From an uncultured Candidatus Saccharibacteria bacterium (lineage in GTDB: Bacteria > Patescibacteriota > Minisyncoccia > Phycocordibacterales > UBA1006): 64,000 nt of DNA. Below are positions 11,849 through 63,931 of the stretch, piece after piece; the stretch's first letter is position 1, and the number at the start of each line of letters is the position of its first letter. The notes beneath the pieces are model-generated. The model was not told the DNA's origin, searched no databases, and saw only the letters and a program-made list of their open reading frames with translations. The stretch lies in NCBI GenBank assembly GCA_964628065.1, contig CAZVLM010000001.1:9357-73356 (forward strand), given 5' to 3'. The position numbers were made by a program, and so were the translations under genes.

Positions 11849-12952
11849 TTATTTCAAAACAACCTTCCCATTTTTAAGTATCAAAAACCCCTCCCTCTCC
11901 AACCCGCTCACAATAGTTTCAATTCTATCCTTATCATCAGAAAGACTTTCCAATTTCTCTTCGAGCTTCTCAATCAAGAGCTTTTTCTTTTCTAAAAGAA
12001 TTTCCAAAATCTTTCCGCGAATCTCGCGATTACTTCCTTCAAATTTTGATTGCTTGGTATAGTGCCTACTTTTCTTATTAGGATTAGGAATCGATTTTCC
12101 TAAATACGACCCGTAGTCCATGAGCGCCCAATACCATTCACGAGGGTTTTCTTTGTCGACAGTTTTTTCTATGAGTTTTAGAAGTTCCCTATCATGCACC
12201 CCAAACACACCCCGCACTTCGTGTCGACCCTCTCTAAAAGAGAGGGTTTGCTCCGATTGGAGTTCGGTCTCGACGGAGACTGCCCTCTCTTTTAGAGAGG
12301 GTGCCACGCGAAGCGGGCGGGTGTGTTTTGACTGGGACTCCGAGAAAAAATGATGCAAGTACACTCGTCGAATATTTGTCTCAATCATCGAGACAGGCTG
12401 ATTGTATGCAAACGCAGAAATCGCTCCCGCTGTATACGGACCGATTCCTGGTAGTGAAAGAATATCTTCATACGTCTGGGGAAATTTTCCTTTAAATCTT
12501 TGCATAATAATTTCCGCTGACCTTTTCATGCGAATTGCCCTCGAATTGTATCCAAGCCCTTTCCATAGCCGAAGTACGTCCGACTGCTTAGCCTCTGCAA
12601 GTGCCTTCACTGTTGGAAATTCCTTCATCCACTTATTGAAAAAATCTACTACTCTGTCTACTTGTGTCTGCTGAAGCATAATCTCCGAAACGTACACATT
12701 GTACGGCTTCGTATTCTTTCTCCACGGCAACTCGTGGCGTCTATTTGCATGATAATAATCCCAGACAGTTTTTTGGAATTTTTTGAGGTCGGAAGGCTTC
12801 ATGTTGGCAATTATACCAGAAACGAAAATCGCCAGACTTCCTTTAGGAAGTCTGGCGATTATTTTACAGTTGTACAAAGAATTACTCAGCCAACTCCTGG
12901 CCGATAAGCGCGCCGCGTCCGCCGCTGTGCACGTAGTCGTCAGAAAACTCAA
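11849..12952 (-). CDS. HhH-GPD DNA glycosylase (MutY/Nth-like). Likely true start is the ATG at 12802. It carries a ~40-aa in-frame insertion encoded by a GC-rich palindromic element.
   Basis: LPWRKNTKPYNVYVSEIMLQQTQV...LPGIGPYTAGAISAFAYNQPVSMIETNIRRV gives the HhH-GPD signature. Residues ~209-251 (KHTRPLRVAPSLKERAVSVETELQSEQTLSFREGRHEVRGVFG) are encoded by element D. No Fe-S Cys cluster is present. Confidence 0.6.
   Translation of the reverse strand: MSFLTTTCTAADAARLSARSWLSNSLYNCKIIARLPKGSLAIFVSGIIANMKPSDLKKFQKTVWDYYHANRRHELPWRKNTKPYNVYVSEIMLQQTQVDRVVDFFNKWMKEFPTVKALAEAKQSDVLRLWKGLGYNSRAIRMKRSAEIIMQRFKGKFPQTYEDILSLPGIGPYTAGAISAFAYNQPVSMIETNIRRVYLHHFFSESQSKHTRPLRVAPSLKERAVSVETELQSEQTLSFREGRHEVRGVFGVHDRELLKLIEKTVDKENPREWYWALMDYGSYLGKSIPNPNKKSRHYTKQSKFEGSNREIRGKILEILLEKKKLLIEKLEEKLESLSDDKDRIETIVSGLEREGFLILKNGKVVLK
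12203..12329. repeat. GC-rich palindromic mini-element (copy D), in frame inside the glycosylase gene
   Basis: Terminal inverted repeats AAACACACCCCGCACTTCGTG / CACGCGAAGCGGGCGGGTGTGTTT. Two internal hairpins: CCCTCTCTAAAAGAGAGGG and CCCTCTCTTTTAGAGAGGG. Confidence 0.7.
12827..12860 (-). terminator. Perfect 15-bp stem hairpin (AATCGCCAGACTTCC-TTTA-GGAAGTCTGGCGATT) followed by a U-tract on the minus strand
   Basis: Inverted repeat read directly from the sequence. It lies downstream of the ORF ending at 12882 and ~25 nt upstream of the glycosylase ATG at 12802. Confidence 0.5.
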
Positions 12953-24574: not shown

Positions 24575-24690
24575 AGTTCTCAGTTCTGGCGACACCTACT
24601 CTCCCTCTTACGAAGTACCATTGGTGTAGCGGCGCTTAACGACTCTGTTCGAAATGGGAAGAGGTGTGACCACCGTACTAAATCACCAGA
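24575..24690 (-). rRNA. rrf: 5S ribosomal RNA
   Basis: The reverse complement reads ..GGTGGTCACACCTCTTCCCATTTCGAACAGAGTCGTTAAGCGCCGCTACACCAATGGTACTTCGTAAGAGGGAGAGTAGGTGTCGCCAGAAC, with helix I closing as GTTCTGGTG / CGCCAGAAC. Confidence 0.75.
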
Positions 24691-24799: not shown

Positions 24800-28205
<3,406 letters not shown>

Positions 28206-36088: not shown

Positions 36089-36114
36089 GTGTTCGCCGCG
36101 GACGCGGCGAACAC
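36089..36114 (-). promoter_or_regulatory. Perfect 12-bp GC-rich hairpin (GTGTTCGCCGCG-GA-CGCGGCGAACAC) in the rplJ-rplL spacer
   Basis: Palindrome read directly from the sequence. Unusually GC-rich for this genome. Confidence 0.4.
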
Positions 36115-36785: not shown

Positions 36786-36813
36786 AAACACCCCCGACTA
36801 ATCGGGGGTGTTG
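36786..36813. terminator. Terminator hairpin (AACACCCCCG-ACTAAT-CGGGGGTGTT)
   Basis: Downstream of 36814..37410 and upstream of the rplJ leader. Confidence 0.55.
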
Positions 36814-37433: not shown

Positions 37434-38402
37434 TTATTGAGTCTTAACAGCCACAAGTCGCGCTCTCCGAATATATGAAGTTCCATTTGGCCACGAACCC
37501 CAAAGTAAGTCATAAGTACTTACGGTAGTAACTTGAACTTTTTTTAATGCATACCACGAACCAAACGTGCTGGTATTTGAATACACTATTCCATAAGCAA
37601 TCTCAGAAGTATCCCTCATGATTTGTGCGCGCACTCCTGCGTCAACCGTTGGATTGTATGCTTCCAAATAACCTTGGAGTAAGTAATTGCCTGGTGGAAG
37701 AGTTAACGATACGCGCACTTGAAGAGTTTGCGTAGTAATACTAGAGATTGGCTCCATTTCCGCGTAATAAACTTGAGGAATAGCATCAGCCCCTGTCGGA
37801 CCAGTAACGCCAATTGCGCCACTCAATCCAGTATTGCCTGGCAATCCTTGAGGGCCGGTTGGGCCTTGGATTCCTGCAATACCGGTCGGTCCTGTCGGAC
37901 CGACCGAGCCAGCTAATCCGTCCGTTCCGGACGGACCCGTTGCGCCAGTAATACCAGTTGCACCAGTTGGGCCTTGGGCACCCATTGGACCGATTGCACC
38001 CGTAGGTCCCACCATGCCATTACCTGAAAAAAGTGCATACGGAACACTCAGAAGTTCTGTGGTTCCCATATCCATAAAATTCCCTCCCCCATTTTGATCA
38101 AGAAATACCTGTAAATATTTAAATCCTGATCCCCAATCAACCGTTGCAAGATTGCCACTACTACCAATTTGGGTCGTCACCAATCCGAACTGGTTAGTGA
38201 TACTAGAAACAATTTCACTGTAGACAATCGTTCCTGTTGATGATGCTTCATGAATAACAAATTTCAGTGTGATCACGCGATTTGCAATAATAACACCTTG
38301 TGCATCCCGCACTACTGCTTGATAATTCATTTTTTGAGGAATCTGAGATTTTAGAAGAATATGCAACATTCCCAATAAGGCGACAAATGTAATTTTTTTC
38401 AT
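37434..38402 (-). CDS. Collagen-like triple-helix-repeat protein with globular N-terminal and C-terminal domains
   Basis: A ~75-aa run of uninterrupted G-X-Y triplets ([74 protein letters not shown]) and a signal peptide. Confidence 0.6.
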
Positions 38403-48988: not shown

Positions 48989-51061
48989 TTACTGCTGATT
49001 TGGAACAAGGTCTTCTTTGCTTACATTTGTCTGAAGTCCTTTTACGGCTTCTTCGAATGACTTTTGGTCTCCCGCAAGTTTAGCTAGTTCCATAAGAGCG
49101 GTATATGATTCCGGGATTTTCGGATTGATGGCAAGAGCCTGCTTAAAGACTGCTTTTGCCTCATCAAATTTTCCTTCATACGCATATGCCTGTCCCAGGA
49201 TCCAATATCCTTGAGGATTTGTTGGAGAAAGTTTAATAGCAAGATTTCCTCCATCAATCATCATTTTTAGACTTTTTTCATCAAGGGCATTTAAAAGCGC
49301 AATTTTAACACTTCCCAATCGCCCGTATGCAATAGCGCCCTGTGCACTTACTGGATACTTATCAAAACTGATTTCGAGCGCGCGGGCAAGCGAATCAACA
49401 TCTTTCATAACAAGCACCTGAGAATCCTTACTGCTCGCAAGTACTTCGTTCAGGTGACCAAGATAGTTCTGGGTATACACATCAGCTCGTTGTGCAAGAG
49501 TAACTCCCGATCCGTAAGGCGATGCCTTTTCTGATATCTCATAGCTTCCAGCACGAATATTCAATGGCGCGTACATCTCTACTAGGATTCGCTTCAGTTT
49601 CACTATCTCTGGGATTGTTGTTGCGAAAGCAATGACCATAATTGCAACTCCTACGGCAATCATTCCATATCGTCTCACTGGCTTGTCAGTCTCATTATTC
49701 GATACTATCAACTGCTTTACCTCCTCTAATCCTAAGAGTGCAAGTAGTACAAAGAATAATAAGAAACTAATATTTACATCAAACAGAATAAAGTTATTTA
49801 CTAAGTACGCAAGGAGCATTCCTGAAAACGCTGCAACAACATACTTATTTTCTTCGTTTTTTGCCTTCTTTACCAATACCCAAATTGTAGCTCCAATTAA
49901 GAATACGTACGCCGCTAGTCCGAGAATTCCCTGTGTGGCAAGCATTTCGAGATAAGCATTGTGCGGTTTATCTGCCCACAATTCACGCTTGTAGGTATTT
50001 CGCATGAAGTCAGAGTTGAAATACCGTTCATTGGCATATCGGAATGTTTCAGGTCCAGTTCCCAAAATTGGATGCGCTTTTATCGAAGTAAGTGCCACAT
50101 TCCAATACAAGAATCGCGTGCCCGATGCCTTCTCTACAAAGGTGTTATGAATAGCATTGTTTGGAATACACACCAATAATACAACGACTGCAGTAATAGT
50201 AATGATTCCTGTTGCAAGCGTTTTTCCAATCCATTTAATACTGTCTTTTTTATTAAATGACAAGTAAATACCTGCAGATAGAACGAGACCGATGATGAGC
50301 GAGAATACTGCTCCTCGTGCGTCACCAATAATACTAATGAATCCGTTCCAATTCCCCTTCAGCATTCCGTATCCGAAAATAACTGGGTTGAAAATAGATA
50401 AAAATCCCATGATTGCAATTAATATCTTTTTCCATCGAATGTTTGTTGTGAAGAACAAGTAAGCGATTACAAAGAAGCTCATCATCAAATAGGTTCCTGC
50501 AAACGAAGAATTTCCCGTAAGTCCTCCTCCGTATGAAATATTTGAAAGAAAAGGTGCTTTAATAATATTAAATCCTGTGAATCCTAACATTGTAGAAATC
50601 GCGATGATTGAACTTCCTGCAGCAATGGGATAGAGAATCGCTTTTCGTATTGTCTTAGTGTGATACGCAAGAAGCACTGACATGATCGCGCCTAATGCCG
50701 TAATGGTTACGAAAAATGTTCCGGTTCCGCGCTCCAGGTGTCCAAACCAAGAAATAGTTCCATCTACTCCGAAAATGGTAGCAAGGATCATCACCACAAT
50801 CGTTGCCCCTATTCCCCAGGCAATTTTCGATTTGGCATACGACTTGAATGACTGCCACGGAATAGCAATGAGGCCCAGAAGTATTACCAACGAAAACCCT
50901 AACTGAATAATTATAGATTTTGAGTTAGCATAGTTATAAGAAAGTTTCGGAAACACCATCACTGATCCGAAGAAGATCGTTATCGCAATAAGCCACGGTG
51001 CCATCTTCAAAGCAATGGCCTGTAATTTTTCTATGGTTTTCATATGGGGGTATTCTAGCAT
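48989..51061 (-). CDS. Large polytopic membrane protein (O-antigen-ligase-like core) with C-terminal TPR repeats
   Basis: 690 aa with ~12 TM helices, a ..GDARGAVFSLIIGLVL.. motif and a C-terminal TPR (..GYWILGQAYAYEGKFDEAKAVFKQALAINPK..). Confidence 0.5.
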   Translation of the reverse strand: MLEYPHMKTIEKLQAIALKMAPWLIAITIFFGSVMVFPKLSYNYANSKSIIIQLGFSLVILLGLIAIPWQSFKSYAKSKIAWGIGATIVVMILATIFGVDGTISWFGHLERGTGTFFVTITALGAIMSVLLAYHTKTIRKAILYPIAAGSSIIAISTMLGFTGFNIIKAPFLSNISYGGGLTGNSSFAGTYLMMSFFVIAYLFFTTNIRWKKILIAIMGFLSIFNPVIFGYGMLKGNWNGFISIIGDARGAVFSLIIGLVLSAGIYLSFNKKDSIKWIGKTLATGIITITAVVVLLVCIPNNAIHNTFVEKASGTRFLYWNVALTSIKAHPILGTGPETFRYANERYFNSDFMRNTYKRELWADKPHNAYLEMLATQGILGLAAYVFLIGATIWVLVKKAKNEENKYVVAAFSGMLLAYLVNNFILFDVNISFLLFFVLLALLGLEEVKQLIVSNNETDKPVRRYGMIAVGVAIMVIAFATTIPEIVKLKRILVEMYAPLNIRAGSYEISEKASPYGSGVTLAQRADVYTQNYLGHLNEVLASSKDSQVLVMKDVDSLARALEISFDKYPVSAQGAIAYGRLGSVKIALLNALDEKSLKMMIDGGNLAIKLSPTNPQGYWILGQAYAYEGKFDEAKAVFKQALAINPKIPESYTALMELAKLAGDQKSFEEAVKGLQTNVSKEDLVPNQQ

Positions 51062-51069
51062 ATTTTAAA

Positions 51070-51300
51070 CCTCACCCCCAGCCCCTCTCCAACACACCCG
51101 TCACTCGCTCCGCTCGTGTACACCCTCTCTAAAAGAGAGGGTTGGCTCCGTCGAGATTATGTACCAATAGAAACTACCGCTTATCTCATAGAGTTAAGCG
51201 GTAGTTTCATTTCAAAATTGAGTCTCGATGTCTACCCTCTCTTTTAGAGAGGGACGCTCGGCGAAGCCGGCGGGGTGTGTTTGTCCGTCGGGTGAGGACA
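51070..51300. repeat. GC-rich composite palindromic element (copy E) with nested inverted repeats
   Basis: Outer IR CCTCACCC / GGGTGAGG. Inner TIR ACACACCCG.. / ..CGGGGTGTGT. Hairpins CCCTCTCTAAAAGAGAGGG, CCCTCTCTTTTAGAGAGGG and AAACTACCGCTTA..TAAGCGGTAGTTT. Confidence 0.7.
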
Positions 51301-51360: not shown

Positions 51361-53292
51361 TTAGTAAGCTCCCTGTGGCTGTGTTTTGAACGCGTTAGAG
51401 TTCAATCCAGCTGTGTATGTGTTCCATGATCCTGTGTATGCTGTTGCATCAGATGCAGACCAGTTAACGTTGATCAATGTAGCTCGAGTAGTGATAGCAC
51501 TTGCTGGCTGGTATGTAACTACCAACTGGAAGTTCTTTGTCTGTCCTACTGGAACCTGGAAGTTTCCATTAGCTGTTGTAATTGTGTCGTTTCCTGTGTA
51601 GTAAACAGTTCCTGATCCTGCTGCTGCACATGCTGTTGTAGCATCGATGCAGAACTGGATAGCCTGAGCTGCTGAAGCTGTTGTAGCAGCTGCTGCAACT
51701 GTAGGAACGTATGCTGTAGATCCGAACGCAGTTACTGAGAATGGAATTGTGTATGTAACGAATGTATGTGTGTTAGCTCCTCCTGGATTACCTACGTTTG
51801 TTGTAGCCATTCCTGTAGAAGAAACACTAATACCATTTACGTATACATATACCTTGCTTCCTGTTGTAGAACCAGTCAAGTATGTAGATCCTGAAAGCAC
51901 GTTGCTTCCTGAATCGTAAGCCTGGATGTTAGAAACATCTCCTGAGGCAACACTTACCTGAGCGTATTCACCTGCTGGGAAGTTTGCAGATCCTACAGTG
52001 TTGAAGTCACCCTTGATTGTAAGAGTTGTTGTTGTTCCTGTAGCAACATTCAAGTTCAAGTTCTGGAACGTAATTGTCTGAGAACCGTATCCTGAAGCTA
52101 CTGCCTGAGAATCAAGCTGTACTCCTGATGCGTCGTACAATCGAAGTGTGTTTACAACAGCACTTGGAACTGTAGCTGAAGCACCAACTGTCAATGTTAC
52201 AGGAAGTCGTCGAACGTTAATTGTAGATCCCTGTGCATTTAGGTCAATCTTAGCCAACTGTACTCCGTTTGTATTAGCTGATGCGCTACCAGAAACTACT
52301 GAGTCGTTAGAATCAGAAAGGTTCTTTGTAACTGTCAACTTGATGCTCTGAGCTGAAGCTGCAGAAGCAAAACTGAAGTATGTGTTAGAAGATGAGTAAG
52401 TTGTTCCAGACAATGGAACGTTTCCGAAGATGTTAGAAGGTGTGTATGTAAACACTCCTGTTGCATCTGAGTATCGGATAGATGTTACATCAAGTCCCCA
52501 AACATCTCCAGACATGTTGTTAGAATCGATTACAGGAAGTGCTGTAACTGAGATAACAATGTTGTTTGTAGAGTTAGCAGTAAGCTGAGCTCCTGAAACT
52601 GGAACGTATGCAGAGTAAACTGAGTTGTACTGTGCGAACTGTCCAGCGTCAAGTGATCCAACCTTTACTCCGTTTAGCCAAACTCCAACGTTTGAAGCGT
52701 ACTTTGTGAACTGGTAATCAGTTCCTGATCCAAAGTTGTAGAATGAAAGGTTCAACCCTGTAAGCTGAGCTGCTCCACCTGCACCTGTAACCATTCGAAT
52801 GTTAGCAATTGGTTTGTCAACCTGACCAACACCTACTGATGTGTTCAAGTTTCCAGAAACTGCTGAAACATTGTTAATGCTCAAAGGAGCTGATGAATTG
52901 TTTGTTGGAACTCCAGATGGAGACAATGTGCAGTTAGATGCAAGTGTCATTCCATTTGGACATAGACCTGCTGAAGGTGTTGTTGGAACTGCAGGTGTAC
53001 CACAGTTGTTCAATGCTACCTTAGTCATGTTTCCTACTAGTCCATCAGCTGGCAATCCCTTTAGGGTCTGGAAAGCCTTAGCTGCTGCAACTGACATAGA
53101 ACCGAAGTTCCCGTCAACTACTAGATTTGCACCGTTGCAAGCGTTCAAAGCTGCCTGAACATTTCGTGCGTATGGTCCCATTGATCCCTTCTTGATCGTT
53201 GTCGATCCGAAATCAAATGTTGCTGCTGAAGCTGAAACTGTAACCGCCATAGCGATTGCAAATGCAGCGACTGCGATAAATTTCTTAATCAT
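51361..53292 (-). CDS. Abundant secreted surface protein (S-layer-like). N-terminal peptidoglycan-binding (PG_binding_1-like) domain followed by a long Ser/Thr/Ala/Gly/Val/Asn-rich beta-rich region.
   Basis: Signal peptide. ..ARNVQAALNACNGANLVVDGNFGSMSVAAAKAFQTLKGLPADGLVGNMT.. matches the PG-binding pattern. Codon usage is strongly biased (GCT/GTT/TCT/ACT/GGA/AAC/TAC), unlike neighbouring genes. The 5' UTR is 667 nt. Confidence 0.55.
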   Translation of the reverse strand: MIKKFIAVAAFAIAMAVTVSASAATFDFGSTTIKKGSMGPYARNVQAALNACNGANLVVDGNFGSMSVAAAKAFQTLKGLPADGLVGNMTKVALNNCGTPAVPTTPSAGLCPNGMTLASNCTLSPSGVPTNNSSAPLSINNVSAVSGNLNTSVGVGQVDKPIANIRMVTGAGGAAQLTGLNLSFYNFGSGTDYQFTKYASNVGVWLNGVKVGSLDAGQFAQYNSVYSAYVPVSGAQLTANSTNNIVISVTALPVIDSNNMSGDVWGLDVTSIRYSDATGVFTYTPSNIFGNVPLSGTTYSSSNTYFSFASAASAQSIKLTVTKNLSDSNDSVVSGSASANTNGVQLAKIDLNAQGSTINVRRLPVTLTVGASATVPSAVVNTLRLYDASGVQLDSQAVASGYGSQTITFQNLNLNVATGTTTTLTIKGDFNTVGSANFPAGEYAQVSVASGDVSNIQAYDSGSNVLSGSTYLTGSTTGSKVYVYVNGISVSSTGMATTNVGNPGGANTHTFVTYTIPFSVTAFGSTAYVPTVAAAATTASAAQAIQFCIDATTACAAAGSGTVYYTGNDTITTANGNFQVPVGQTKNFQLVVTYQPASAITTRATLINVNWSASDATAYTGSWNTYTAGLNSNAFKTQPQGAY

Positions 53293-53483: not shown

Positions 53484-53600
53484 AGAACACATCACAAGAA
53501 CACACCCGCCCGCTTCGCGAGGCACCCTCTCTAAAAGAGAGGGTAGACCATCGAGATTTTTTTCAGGAAGGAACATTCTTGTGATGTGTTCTTTTCTGAC
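53484..53600. repeat. GC-rich palindromic half-element (copy F) bracketed by a 16-bp inverted repeat
   Basis: ACACACCCGCCCGCTTCGCGAGGCACCCTCTCTAAAAGAGAGGG, flanked by GAACACATCACAAGAA ... TTCTTGTGATGTGTTC. Confidence 0.6.
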
Positions 53601-54886: not shown

Positions 54887-55013
54887 CCCTCATCCGCCCT
54901 TCGGGCACCTTCTCCCTTTGGGAGAAGGCTACACTTTCGACTTCAGTTGGCACCAATAAAAATGTCTGCCCCTCTCCCTTTGGGAGAGGGTGCCCGAAGG
55001 GCGGGAGAGGGTT
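54887..55013. repeat. GC-rich palindromic mini-element (copy G) immediately upstream of ftsK
   Basis: TIRs CCGCCCTTCGGGCACC / GGTGCCCGAAGGGCGG. Internal hairpins CTTCTCCCTTTGGGAGAAGG and CCCTCTCCCTTTGGGAGAGGG. Confidence 0.65.
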
Positions 55014-55051: not shown

Positions 55052-57313
55052 ATGGCAAAAAAAGATCTGAAACAAAAGAAAAATTCTGTTGAAAAAGCTC
55101 CAGAGGAATCTAGCAATCCTCGTATTAAGCGATCTATTATCGCGATCATTTTACTTGCGATTACGGTAGTTATTATCCTCGGAGCCTTTGATGCGGCAGG
55201 TATTGCCGGTCATTTTATCTATCATTCGGTGCTTAAATTTTTGGTAGGATTTGGTGTTATCTTAGTGCCTATCTTCCTTGTCGTTTATGCGGTAAACCTT
55301 CTTAAGAACCAGCCTCACGAGTGGTCATGGGTTGAGTATGTTAGCTCTTCCCTTTTGATGATTTCCATCCTTGGTTTCATCCAAATTATTTCTCCAGGAA
55401 TTAAAGGCGGTGGCGTTATTGGGTACGGCATAGGAACCGTTATGACGAAGATTTTTGATGTCTATGCCGGCGCAACAATATTAGGTGCCGTTGCACTTAT
55501 TTCGACATTGGTACTTATTGATGAGGAATTAAGAATGCCTGCGTTCCTTAAAAATATGTTTTCTAAGTCTTCAAAAGAAGAGTCATTTGTTGATGAAGAT
55601 TTTGTACTCACAAAAGCAGATTTGAATGAATTACCACCAGCTCCAATAGCGGACCCTCTCCTTGCAGGAGAGGGTGGACGGCGCCAGCCGCCGGGTGAGG
55701 TTGTGAAAGCTGAAGTACCCGAAGAACCTCGGATTGCTAAAAAAGAAAAAGTTGAGGACGAGTTCATTACTGCAAATGCCGTATTTTCAGAAACATATGA
55801 ATACCCTCCAACCAGCCTCCTTGGTCAGTCATCAGGCAAGCCATCCGTTGGAGACATCAAAGCGAACGCGAACTTGATCAAGCGAACCCTTTTGAACTTT
55901 GGAATTGATGTGGAAATGGATGAAGTTTCAATCGGGCCAACCGTGACTCGCTACGCTTTGAAACCAGCGGAAGGTATTAAGCTGACCCGAATTCTCGCAC
56001 TCAAATCTGACCTTGCACTCGCCCTTGCCGCCCACCCTATTCGAATCGAAGCCCCTATCCCTGGCAAGTCATTAGTAGGTATCGAAATTCCGAACAGAAC
56101 TCTTGAGAATGTAGGTCTTGGAACCCTGCTTGATGAAGACTCATTCCAGAATTCTCCTAACCGTCTTCAGGTTGCCCTTGGAAAGGGGGTGGCTGGAAAG
56201 TCTTACTTTGCAAACTTAGCAAAAATGCCGCACCTTTTGATTGCCGGAACTACAGGATCAGGAAAGTCGGTTACTATGCACAACTTAATCCTGTCGCTCT
56301 TATATAAGAACGGACCTGAAGACCTCCGGGTTATTATGATCGACCCAAAACGAGTAGAACTTACTCTTTATAATGATATCCCCCACCTTCTAACACCTGT
56401 TATTAAAGAATCAAAGAAGGCTATCCTTGCCCTTAAATGGGCCGCGAAGGAAATGGAACGACGGTATGACATTCTTGAAAATTGCTCATGCCGAGACATT
56501 CAGTCCTATCATGCAAATATCCAAGACCCCTACTATGCTAAGACCAAGAAAAAAAGTCGCGATGACGATGATACAGATACCAAGGCGCCGGAGCGAATGC
56601 CTTACATCGTAGTATTTATTGAAGAGTTGGCCGACATCATGCAGGCATATCCTCGCGAATTGGAAGCCGGTATTGTCCGACTTGCCCAAATGTCCCGAGC
56701 CGTGGGTATTCACCTCATCCTTTCAACCCAGCGACCATCCGTGAACGTTATTACCGGACTTATTAAAGCCAATATTCCATCACGATTAGCACTTCAAGTA
56801 GCCTCTCAGATTGACTCTCGAACAATTTTGGATGCGCCAGGCGCCGAATCGCTTCTTGGTAAGGGAGATATGCTCTATCAAGGTGCTGACATGTCTAAGC
56901 CTGAACGTATGCAGTGTGCAAACGTAGATGAAAACCAAGTTAAGAAAGTCGTTGCCTTTATTAAGAAGCACAACGTTTCCCTTCCTGACGAAATCGCCTT
57001 GGGCGAAGTATTGGATGATGACCGATCAATTGTTTCAGCTAATCTTGAAAGCGACGAGGACGACGAACTTTATGAAGATGCTCGAGCCTGCGTTATTGAG
57101 GCCGGCAAAGCTTCAACCAGCTATATTCAGCGAAAATTGAAGGTTGGCTACTCTCGAGCAGCGCGCCTCATCGACCTTTTGGAGGAACGCGGAGTGGTTG
57201 GTCCTGCGGACGGCGCGAAACCTAGAGAAGTACTTAGTGGTGGATCTTCTCCTGAAATTGGGTTATCCACAACCGATGTTATTGATAGATTAAACGAGGA
57301 GAGCGAGGTATAA
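55052..57313 (+). CDS. ftsK: DNA translocase FtsK (start reassigned to the ATG at 55052)
   Basis: N-terminal TM helices, Walker A GTTGSGKS, Walker B/RecA-like motor, C-terminal gamma wHTH (..YIQRKLKVGYSRAARLIDLLEERGVVGP..). The track ORF start at 54884 reads through repeat element G. Confidence 0.9.
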   Translation: MAKKDLKQKKNSVEKAPEESSNPRIKRSIIAIILLAITVVIILGAFDAAGIAGHFIYHSVLKFLVGFGVILVPIFLVVYAVNLLKNQPHEWSWVEYVSSSLLMISILGFIQIISPGIKGGGVIGYGIGTVMTKIFDVYAGATILGAVALISTLVLIDEELRMPAFLKNMFSKSSKEESFVDEDFVLTKADLNELPPAPIADPLLAGEGGRRQPPGEVVKAEVPEEPRIAKKEKVEDEFITANAVFSETYEYPPTSLLGQSSGKPSVGDIKANANLIKRTLLNFGIDVEMDEVSIGPTVTRYALKPAEGIKLTRILALKSDLALALAAHPIRIEAPIPGKSLVGIEIPNRTLENVGLGTLLDEDSFQNSPNRLQVALGKGVAGKSYFANLAKMPHLLIAGTTGSGKSVTMHNLILSLLYKNGPEDLRVIMIDPKRVELTLYNDIPHLLTPVIKESKKAILALKWAAKEMERRYDILENCSCRDIQSYHANIQDPYYAKTKKKSRDDDDTDTKAPERMPYIVVFIEELADIMQAYPRELEAGIVRLAQMSRAVGIHLILSTQRPSVNVITGLIKANIPSRLALQVASQIDSRTILDAPGAESLLGKGDMLYQGADMSKPERMQCANVDENQVKKVVAFIKKHNVSLPDEIALGEVLDDDRSIVSANLESDEDDELYEDARACVIEAGKASTSYIQRKLKVGYSRAARLIDLLEERGVVGPADGAKPREVLSGGSSPEIGLSTTDVIDRLNEESEV
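55652..55700. repeat. GC-rich palindromic mini-element (copy H), in frame within the ftsK linker region
   Basis: GGACCCTCTCCTTGCAGGAGAGGGTGGACGGCGCCAGCCGCCGGGTGAGG encodes ..DPLLAGEGGRRQPPGEV.. Confidence 0.6.
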
Positions 57314-63121: not shown

Positions 63122-63931
63122 TTAAACACTTAGATTAAAGAATTTTTGTGTATTTTTAAGGAGTTGCTGGCGCACATCTTCCTCATCCATATTTTTAAGT
63201 TCCGCAACCTTCTTCGCAACTTCTATCACCATCCATGGCTCGCACGGTTTTCCTCGATACGGTGCAGGCGCTGCAAATGGCGCATCTGTTTCTATCATGA
63301 GTGATTCAAGTGGTACTGCCTTTATCATTTCGTCATAATCTCGTGAAAAAGTAATCGGTCCATCAACGGAAACAGTAAAACCTGCGGAAACAATTGCTTC
63401 CATACATTCTTTTGATCCTGAGAAGAAATGGAAATTGGCACGCAGTGGTGCGGAATCCTCCTCTTGCCAAGAGGAGGTGCCGAGGCTCTGCGAGGCGGAG
63501 GAGTTTTCAAGAATTTTTAATGCATCATAATACGCATTATCACTCCCCTTCGATGCGCGCACATGAAGCATCAGTGGCTTGTTTACTTTCTTTGCGAGGG
63601 TAATATGCTTCTTAAAAATATCTTCTTGAATCTTTCGAGATTCGGGAGTGTCTTCATGAAAATAGTCGAGTCCGGTTTCGCCAATGGCGACTACTTTAGG
63701 ATTGAGGGCAAGTTTTTCTAGTTCACTCCAGCCACCATCCTCACCCGGTTCGCTGCGCGAACCACCCTCTCCACTATCGTGGAGAGGGTTACTGCAATAG
63801 CATGGATGGATTCCCACTGTTGCCCAGCAGGTGTCAGGATACGCCTCAGCGATCTCAACCGCTGTTTTGGAGGTCTCAAGCCCTGTTCCAACCGTGATCG
63901 TCGCCACACCCAAATCTTTCATTTTAGCCAC
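63122..63931 (-). CDS. TatD-family metal-dependent hydrolase carrying two in-frame GC-rich palindromic insertions
   Basis: ..TVGIHPCY...VVAIGETGLDY...LMLHVRAS...FHFFSGS...IETDAPF.. are TatD motifs. Extra segments SNPLHDSGEGGSRSEPGEDGGW and NSSASQSLGTSSWQEEDSAPLRA are encoded by the elements at 63737..63790 and 63448..63505. Confidence 0.8.
   Translation of the reverse strand: MAKMKDLGVATITVGTGLETSKTAVEIAEAYPDTCWATVGIHPCYCSNPLHDSGEGGSRSEPGEDGGWSELEKLALNPKVVAIGETGLDYFHEDTPESRKIQEDIFKKHITLAKKVNKPLMLHVRASKGSDNAYYDALKILENSSASQSLGTSSWQEEDSAPLRANFHFFSGSKECMEAIVSAGFTVSVDGPITFSRDYDEMIKAVPLESLMIETDAPFAAPAPYRGKPCEPWMVIEVAKKVAELKNMDEEDVRQQLLKNTQKFFNLSV
63448..63505. repeat. GC-rich palindromic mini-element (copy I1), in frame inside TatD
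   Basis: CCTCCTCTTG-CCAAGAGGAGG hairpin plus GCCGAGGCTCTGCGAGGCGGAGG. Confidence 0.6.
63737..63790. repeat. GC-rich palindromic mini-element (copy I2), in frame inside TatD
   Basis: CCTCACCC GGTTCGC-TGC-GCGAACC A CCCTCTCC-ACTATCGT-GGAGAGGG. Confidence 0.6.

Follow-up and report, generated by a model that had tools for sequence, protein, structure and literature searches.

How does a GC-rich palindrome come to lie in frame within a DNA-repair gene, and what could have carried it there? The question is raised by a 64,000-nt stretch of contig CAZVLM010000001.1 (assembly GCA_964628065.1, positions 9,357 to 73,356) from an uncultured Candidatus Saccharibacteria bacterium, a member of the Patescibacteria or candidate phyla radiation (CPR). 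This whole stretch is referred to below as the window, and positions are counted from its first letter. At 12203-12328 it carries a palindromic mini-element within the gene of a clusterless MutY-type adenine glycosylase. The element is real and in frame, a selfish palindrome in a DNA-repair gene. We propose that it is a non-autonomous mobile element, resembling a MITE (a miniature transposable element with inverted repeats) or a doublet of REPs (repetitive extragenic palindromes), that would have landed in frame in a tolerant surface linker of the glycosylase and that consists of the two ends of a larger unit carrying a DUF559 gene. To this account as a whole we assign a probability of about 0.6. 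The gene, the element and its halves are placed as follows.

11849-12802, minus strand: host gene, a clusterless MutY-type HhH-GPD adenine glycosylase of 317 amino acids, identified from Pfam, PDB, Foldseek and synteny.
12203-12328, no strand assigned: palindromic mini-element, in-frame translation KHTRPLRVAPSLKERAVSVETELQSEQTLSFREGRHEVRGVF; net insertion of 129 nt relative to an empty 15-nt linker.
12204-12255, plus strand: left half-unit, with the terminus AACACACC, a small variable hairpin cgcac-ttc-gtgtcg, the conserved hairpin CCCTCTCTAAAAGAGAGGG and the inner segment TTTGCTCCG.
12274-12327, minus strand: right half-unit, inverted, with AACACACC, gcccgc-ttc-gcgtggc, CCCTCTCTAAAAGAGAGGG and CAGTCTCCGTCGAGA.

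A sequence-only reading of the window had proposed a GC-rich element with terminal inverted repeats at this place, and the element was found there: perfect 10-nt termini, AAACACACCC at 12203-12212 and GGGTGTGTTT at 12319-12328, delimit 126 nt, and longer, imperfect arms (12227-12255 and 12274-12302) are 86% complementary. Both hairpins described in that reading are also present, at 12228-12246 and 12283-12301, in the form CCCTCTCT-loop-AGAGAGGG, but their loop has 3 nt (AAA/TTT) and not 4, and the NNNN pattern given for them has no match. The GC content is 57% in the element, 43% in the host gene and 41% in the window. Folded as single strands, the two strands of the element reach -84.6 and -89.1 kcal/mol (z = -8.8 and -9.8), each forming one long hairpin, and none of 200 shuffled sequences was as stable; the folding check that the earlier reading had suggested thus came out in its favor. 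The 19-nt hairpin motif occurs in five exact copies in the window, against 0.12 expected.

The element is built from two half-units of about 55 nt in inverted orientation. Each runs from the terminus AACACACC through a small covarying hairpin with a TTC or TAC loop and the hairpin CCCTCTCT-AAA-AGAGAGGG to a short inner segment. Over 45 nt, the right half-unit is 97.8% identical to a half copy at 53499-53543. Among copies, the small hairpin between the terminus and the conserved hairpin keeps its loop and its stem while the stem sequence changes entirely (variants include gcaggac/gtcctgt, gctttgc/gcaaagt and gtccgcc/ggcggat), and the changes are fully compensatory, which argues that the small hairpin may be recognized as a structure. 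No Rfam family was found for the element or for the DUF559 flanks described below, the only matches being sub-threshold microRNA noise. A role of the element as an intrinsic terminator or promoter within the glycosylase gene was also considered and was ruled out, because none is predicted on the coding strand inside it.

The host gene starts at an ATG at 12802 and ends with a stop codon at 11849-11851 on the minus strand. As the sequence-only reading had stated, the open reading frame (ORF) passes through the whole element; of the three frames that each strand of the element offers, a single one is free of stops, and the glycosylase gene uses one of these two. The protein matches HhH-GPD (Pfam E = 6.8e-18) and HHH, and the Cys4 iron-sulfur motif is absent from its 317 residues. 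Its best sequence match in the PDB is 8uuc_A (2.7e-62), and the top Foldseek match is the same structure, 8uuc, a "clusterless MutYX" adenine glycosylase. The order of the glycosylase gene and a UvrD/PDDEXK helicase gene is kept in homologous loci.

Several comparisons identify the element as an insertion. The alignment to 8uuc splits into two blocks, with query residues 157-201 opposite two residues of the structure, and most of the 120 best database homologs have 274-284 amino acids. In the closest homologs with an empty site, P0003 and P0004, 15 nt separate the ..HHFF and VHD.. codons (encoding KDQEN and RGKEK), as compared with 144 nt in the window. The net gain of 129 nt, or 43 amino acids, takes the linker from 5 residues to 48. 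The earlier description of an indel that adds some 40 residues to the linker is therefore borne out, whereas the linker of homologs, given there as about 20 residues, has 5. A metagenome scan for homologous loci, which returned mostly distant relatives, provided 57 loci with a measurable linker. It has 5 codons in 49 of them and at most 8 in the others; an empty site of 5 codons thus appears to be the ancestral state. In the AlphaFold model the core has a predicted local distance difference test (pLDDT) score of about 87-97 and insert residues 156-199 score below 50, which suggests a low-confidence surface loop that leaves the fold undisturbed.

The window contains further members of the family, which settles in the affirmative the multi-copy check proposed by the sequence-only reading.

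51071-51298 (inner element 51091-51281), no strand assigned: intergenic copy of the same family, between the ORFs 48989-51061 and 51361-53292.
53499-53560, within 53484-53592, no strand assigned: intergenic solo half-unit, inside a 17-nt inverted repeat (53484-53500 and 53576-53592).
54887-55011, no strand assigned: palindrome of a related subtype, with hairpins GCCC-TTC-GGGC and CCTTCTCCC-TTT-GGGAGAAGG / CCCTCTCCC-TTT-GGGAGAGGG.
55654-55700, plus strand: solo half-unit that encodes PLLAGEGGRRQPPGE in frame within the linker of a gene called FtsK/SpoIIIE-like from its motifs.
63739-63788, minus strand: solo half-unit that encodes PLHDSGEGGSRSEPGE in frame within a TatD-family DNase gene (63125-63931, minus strand).
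63452-63502 (approximate), minus strand: another in-frame insert with a hairpin in this TatD-family gene, SASQSLGTSSWQEEDS; the hairpin, CCTCCTCTT-GGC-AAGAGGAGG, lies at 63457-63477.
639-690, no strand assigned: related module directly after a gene end, with the small hairpin cgccggcttcgccgagcg and a different GC hairpin, ACCCCGCCTTATTCAAGGCGGGGT.

At least three copies of the same subtype, together with related subtypes and solo half-units, lie within these 64 kb, and at least four copies are intragenic and in frame, in three genes. The half-unit in the FtsK-like gene is identical at 45 of 47 nt to the right arm of the glycosylase-linker insert of homolog P0030 (locus L185), and the half-unit at 63739-63788 in the TatD-family gene is identical at 46 of 50 nt to the glycosylase-linker insert of homolog P0029 (locus L184); these two half-units are thus 92-96% identical to linker inserts of other genomes. 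The presence of the same DNA module in different genes of different genomes is direct evidence, on the level of sequence, for what appears to be a mobile family colonizing coding sequence in frame. The best alignments of the TatD-family protein to solved TatD structures begin just after the insert at 63739-63788. The second insert in this gene is a 14-residue block missing from the solved TatD/YcfH structures 2gzx and 6l25, and its peptide resembles the glycosylase inserts of P0102 and P0058.

The other copies show how the modules vary. In the center of the copy at 51 kb, an extra segment of about 64 nt contains a hairpin of its own (51170-51208), and this copy has fragments of a CCTCACCC-type module on either side. 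Its small hairpin is identical to cgccggcttcgccgagcg of the module at 639-690 (21 nt, 100%). The palindrome at 54887-55011 (125 nt) has arms of 51 nt that are 78% complementary; it is situated a little upstream of the probable start of ftsK (55054) and can be read without a stop in the frame of an upstream ATG (54884).

Two tiny intergenic palindromes, at 36089-36114 and 36787-36812, are made of the terminal motif of the element (GTGTTCGCCGCGGACGCGGCGAACAC, with termini pointing outward, and AACACCCCCGACTAATCGGGGGTGTT) and may be footprints or minimal elements. GC hairpins in the gene at 37437-38402 (minus strand) were considered as further copies and rejected, as they are the Gly-X-Y codon repeats of a collagen-like protein, which has a probable signal peptide.

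What could have moved these elements is hinted at by the genes that their ends enclose elsewhere. DUF559 is a very large "domain of unknown function" family, whose members are usually annotated as Vsr-like repair nucleases. A genome scan with the 19-nt hairpin alone returned the loci L001-L096, which comprise 703 kb and 106 hairpin cores. One of them, L014, a Saccharibacteria contig fetched through this hairpin only, carries two half-units of the window type in inverted orientation, 453 nt apart, and they enclose a single ORF of 123 amino acids that is a DUF559 protein (PF04480, Pfam E = 8.6e-24). In an alignment of 58 positions, the left end of the window element agrees with the left repeat of L014 at 51, among them 9 nt past the hairpin; for the right ends the figure is 40 of 49. 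Relatives of this DUF559 protein that are 72-81% identical (L254-257 and L261) are all bracketed by the same inverted repeats of about 60 nt. The full units of Saccharibacteria (L014, L254-257 and L261) measure 551-552 bp in total, with repeats reaching the very ends, as expected for a unit that moves whole. They occupy two chromosomal sites, one adjoining xth and the other between a beta-CASP nuclease gene and rplT. The window element can be read as such a unit minus its gene-bearing interior of about 430 bp, and because its arms match the repeats that bracket the DUF559 gene, we regard it as a gene-less derivative of the MITE or REPIN type (a REPIN being a REP doublet that forms a hairpin).

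Across the hairpin loci, element ends and DUF559 genes are associated statistically as well as structurally. All five DUF559 matches in the 703 kb lie 5-216 nt from a hairpin core; since 7.3% of this sequence is within 250 nt of a core, the chance of five out of five is about 2e-6. No gene except DUF559 was found in compact enclosure between inverted modules in the same 703 kb. The motif (A)CTCACCCC stands on exactly one side of 45 of the 106 hairpin cores. In Bacteroidales and Clostridiales, the DUF559 gene is bracketed by GACTCACCCC-N3-5-CCCTCTCT-loop-AGAGAGGG repeats, and the module of terminus plus hairpin flanks DUF559 genes in Bacteroidota and Clostridia as well. The association also holds in the opposite direction, across phyla: in an independent sample of viral contigs collected by protein similarity, all of the closest DUF559 relatives carry GC hairpins of this kind on one or more of the flanks available, and two of these relatives (L192 and L193) have CCCTCACCCC termini, whereas no flanking GC hairpins were found at the more distant DUF559-like genes of that sample.

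A metagenome-assembled genome of the Clostridiales, GWE2_32_10 (MGOW01 contigs), accounts for about 20 of the 96 hairpin loci. It contains one DUF559 unit (L020) and numerous doublets without a gene, which have ACTCACCCC termini and a spacing of about 70 nt between hairpins; this is the pattern of a single enzyme gene with many non-autonomous copies. DUF559 genes have also been reported to be 14-fold enriched among predicted inversion targets (PMC9881135), which fits genes bracketed by inverted repeats.

Further observations were made at these loci. The DUF559 ORFs extend into the flanking repeats (L020 7034-7393, with the C-terminus ..PLSFREGLGVSPR*, and L049 125-436), so the gene fills the unit almost completely. 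In two Bacteroidales (L041 and L049) the unit is at the same place, adjoining a map-like gene. Among loci of bacteria both related and unrelated, in-frame hairpin modules were seen in a prepilin leader (MKTIKKHTPTLSKREGAAPRG|FTLIELL, L093 at about 2600-2700), in an S-adenosylmethionine (SAM) methyltransferase (SLSFREGDSRQAAGRV, L096 3842-4741), in a long ORF resembling a cysteine desulfurase (IscS-like, L047 1-1062) and in a Prevotellaceae ORF resembling MutS2 (SPLLKRGAGGES, L050).

On the mechanism that we propose, a DUF559 nuclease, acting in trans from elsewhere in the genome or formerly active, would recognize the hairpin-bearing ends as structures and would mobilize both full units and gene-less derivatives, much as the REP-associated tyrosine transposase (RAYT) does for REPINs. 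That DUF559 is the mobilizing enzyme is a tentative assignment, to which we would give somewhat less than an even chance. Insertions into coding DNA would survive only where a tolerant, disordered loop receives them and the frame is open, a filter that would explain why inserts are seen in the linkers of glycosylase, TatD-like and FtsK-like genes. The glycosylase insert would then be translated and neutral, or nearly so.

Several points weigh against this account. No consistent target-site duplication or target consensus was found among the copies when these were sought; copies in the window are flanked by AA/TT, CA/TT or GA, and the full DUF559 units read TAACAC...GTGTTA, in which a TA duplication could be hidden. 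Mobility of the full units, as read from their sequences, draws on just the two chromosomal contexts given above. These units come from related genomes and not from that of the window, where a tblastn search of the 64 kb found no DUF559 gene, so a trans-acting partner in the host organism is unproven. Characterized DUF559/Vsr-like proteins are mismatch-repair nucleases and not transposases (PMC12907096). The presumed translation of the insert is read off from its open frame only. Finally, the association between hairpins and DUF559 genes is equally compatible with a homing gene that targets the center of the palindrome.

The last point belongs to the first alternative, in which a repeat of the REP/REPIN or MITE type is moved by a conventional transposase out of view, either a RAYT or IS200-like Y1 enzyme reading the subterminal hairpins or one from another insertion sequence (IS), and DUF559 is a passenger or a homing-type nuclease gene that lands in palindrome centers, for which each genome would offer many identical targets. 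The doublet-of-hairpins design is indeed that of REPINs (10.1101/2021.07.10.451892). Palindrome centers can accept insertions, as is seen in the 51-kb copy, whose center acquired an unrelated 64 nt, and the Vsr/DUF559 clan includes a homing endonuclease, I-Bth0305I (PMC3424549). In some copies (the 51-kb right arm, L254 and L019) CGTC adjoins the hairpin stem on the 5′ side, as it does in CGTC REPs; elsewhere this place is taken by TCGA, GGCA, TACA or TGTCG. However, CGTC REPs have stems starting with AT and loops of 4-5 nt, unlike these hairpins, and no conserved GTAG tag was seen in the copies. The modules in the 703 kb enclose no transposase gene, only DUF559, although no search was aimed at RAYT genes, and the fixed size of the DUF559 units, with repeats to their very ends, points to a unit that moves whole. 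We consider this alternative, the main rival, unlikely.

The glycosylase linker itself is a hotspot of insertion, which may reflect selection for a tolerant loop or a local preference in the DNA. Extra residues (+10 to +49) lie exactly between FF and VHD in 23 of the 91 parsable close homologs, and these inserts fall into eight or more unrelated sequence types. When the linker is masked for tree building, their presence and absence require at least 13 changes by gain or loss on the tree. At the DNA level, the inserts of the window gene, P0002, P0008 and P0030 are four different GC-rich palindromes and that of P0029 is a solo half-unit; all five have CACCC...GGGTG-type termini and a CCCTCTCC-like hairpin. 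The position varies within the linker, directly after FF in P0029 and P0010 and directly before VHD in P0100 and the window gene, so there is no single target nucleotide. P0002, whose protein is 85% identical and was recovered from three samples, has the window-type left half with a different center and right half, which suggests an ancestral insertion that has since been partly replaced. Homologs sharing the peptide without a palindrome, the finding that would have spoken against the sequence-only reading, were not encountered: P0002, the single close homolog with part of the peptide, has a palindrome in its nucleotides too.

Two other observations concern these loci. The glycosylase gene of P0008 contains a perfect palindrome with an 11-bp stem, CGGTGCGGTCGCTTGCGACCGCACCG, at L183 10218-10243, which lies in conserved coding sequence (FPTVRSLATAPQ) and leaves the length unchanged relative to homologs. 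Syntenic glycosylase loci of other Patescibacteria contain an ORF resembling a reverse transcriptase (RT-like, with a weak RVT_1 match) and a serine recombinase (L185 5803-6867 and L184 6272-7615), which are other traces of mobile elements near the glycosylase gene.

Such recurrence could also mean that the inserts are selected, the linker being occupied to advantage by a flexible modulating loop rich in Pro, Gly, Glu and Arg or by a regulatory mRNA or DNA hairpin, with the repeats serving as ready-made modules for exaptation. In addition to the 13 or more independent events at one 5-codon linker and the 23 occupied homologs out of 91, the solo half-units in four genes agree in the orientation and frame in which they are read (P-L-x3-G-E-G-G-x-R-x2-P-G-E), even though they have further open frames, and the palindromes in the linker are intact rather than decaying. 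Yet the inserts differ widely in sequence, length (+10 to +49 amino acids) and exact position, and the 5-residue linker is kept by most homologs and by 49 of the 57 distant ones in which it is measurable. AlphaFold predicts no ordered structure for the insert, its coding strand has no predicted terminator or promoter, and the same modules also occur in unrelated genes and in intergenic DNA. We judge a benefit of this kind quite improbable. It is barely credible that the insert is an intervening sequence, removed as an intein or intron or passed over by translational bypass rather than translated. It is a strongly structured GC-rich block inside an AT-rich gene, CPR genomes carry introns and the 23S rRNA gene of the window has a group I intron. 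But the insert has only 129 nt, and of the frames on its coding strand precisely the one that the gene uses is free of stops and the other two are not; it matches no intron or other family in Rfam and shows no intein-like length or motifs, and the homologous inserts, although they differ greatly in length, all keep the frame of the called proteins.

In the window, the 23S rRNA gene (24826-28189, minus strand) measures 3364 nt, as compared with the 2925 positions of the model; Rfam places the group I intron at 25122-25338, and a 5S rRNA gene adjoins at 24584-24690.

Taking the element again as a gene-less doublet of DUF559-unit ends, we consider what is new in it. That palindromic repeats occur in frame, often in DNA-repair genes, is already known from Rickettsia palindromic elements (RPEs) and intragenic REPs. 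The suggestion by the sequence-only reading of an analogous, undescribed selfish repeat family accordingly holds in part: no description of this family or of its like in Patescibacteria was found, whereas the in-frame behavior is documented for RPEs and GTAG/CGTC REPs (PMC3733652 and PMC10969869). Our literature searches found no description of a link between DUF559 and repeats, of MITEs in CPR or of the linker hotspot. New here are a credible lead to a nuclease partner, for which no prior description was found, and the insertion hotspot. By itself, the element adds a new host group, the CPR/Patescibacteria, whose reduced genomes are usually thought poor in mobile DNA. The match between its ends and the repeats flanking DUF559 genes hints at what may move such elements; if DUF559 nucleases do mobilize hairpin repeats, part of this family would gain a testable function, and the palindromic repeats that "lack a dedicated transposase" (PMC3733652) would have a candidate enzyme in DUF559. 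The linker of five codons in a repair glycosylase, which different subtypes have entered independently on at least a dozen occasions, is a natural experiment on the places in proteins that selfish DNA can occupy, and on whether its landing sites reflect a choice made by the element or a filter set by selection.

A bolder extension, possible but in our view not quite probable, is that this DUF559 subclade represents the dedicated nucleases of a hairpin-ended selfish superfamily spanning several phyla. This would be a second, independent partnership of the REPIN-RAYT kind, with a Vsr-like PD-(D/E)xK nuclease in place of an HUH transposase, and its gene-less derivatives and solo ends would recurrently supply housekeeping proteins with P-L-x3-GEGG...PGE loops, inserted in frame, with preferred landing sites such as the clusterless-MutY linker.

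Among known systems, inteins, introns and bypass elements are set apart from the element by its lack of an Rfam match, its 129 nt and its being open in the frame used. Homing endonucleases of the Vsr fold, such as I-Bth0305I, resemble the DUF559 units as small selfish nuclease genes of the same structural clan (cited in PMC3424549). The DUF559 units differ in being bounded by long inverted repeats that carry hairpins and in being accompanied by scattered, gene-less palindromic derivatives. To our knowledge, homing endonucleases are not normally bounded in this way and leave no such derivatives.

RPEs (Ogata et al. 2000) are the documented precedent for palindromic repeats in frame within genes; according to the summary in PMC10969869, they measure some 100-150 bp, fall into several families and have entered unrelated housekeeping genes of a small-genome bacterium in frame, with an added peptide predicted to be compatible with the fold of the host protein, and in all these respects the window family is similar. 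The differences are the phylum, the construction of the window elements from two separable half-units that are also found singly, the existence of a version that carries a gene (DUF559), and the repeated striking of one linker in different lineages. We know of no partner gene for RPEs. Because the host is a Patescibacterium, we treat the element as an analog of RPEs and not as a member.

REPs and the REPIN-RAYT system share with the window family short GC-rich hairpins that occur as singlets (here 53499-53560, 55654-55700 and 63739-63788) and as inverted doublets folding into long hairpins (12203-12328), as well as a small nuclease gene flanked by the same repeats. Intragenic singlets and dimers of GTAG/CGTC REPs that encode 20-30 amino acids are on record, many of them in DNA replication and repair genes, and CGTC REPs have been reported without a dedicated enzyme (PMC3733652). 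Here, however, the flanked gene encodes a PD-(D/E)xK Vsr-like DUF559 protein and not an HUH tyrosine transposase, the stem starts with CC and not with AT, the loop has 3 nt, and no conserved GTAG was seen. REPINs are almost exclusively extragenic, unlike the window family with its four or more in-frame intragenic copies. The element is thus not a member of the REPIN-RAYT system, since the flanked gene is no RAYT, the copies are not extragenic and no conserved GTAG showed up among them.

Bacterial MITEs with in-frame insertions include Coxiella QMITE1, intragenic enterobacterial repetitive intergenic consensus (ERIC) sequences and the MITEs of Anabaena (PMC5896051, PMC10969869). Like them, the element is small, has terminal inverted repeats and no ORF of its own, is present in multiple copies and is occasionally fused in frame to host ORFs. 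As in MITEs, it appears to be a deletion derivative of a longer, gene-carrying element with the same ends, the 551-552-bp unit, and with its 126 nt and imperfect arms of about 55 nt it falls within the usual definition of a non-coding element below about 500 bp that is bounded by terminal inverted repeats. The parents of classical MITEs are IS elements, whose transposases are of the DDE or another known type, and such MITEs have target-site duplications, whereas the parent here carries only DUF559, which has no known transposase activity, and no duplication is defined; on the transposase it stands outside the classical group. In the way it works, the element is like both a MITE and a REPIN.

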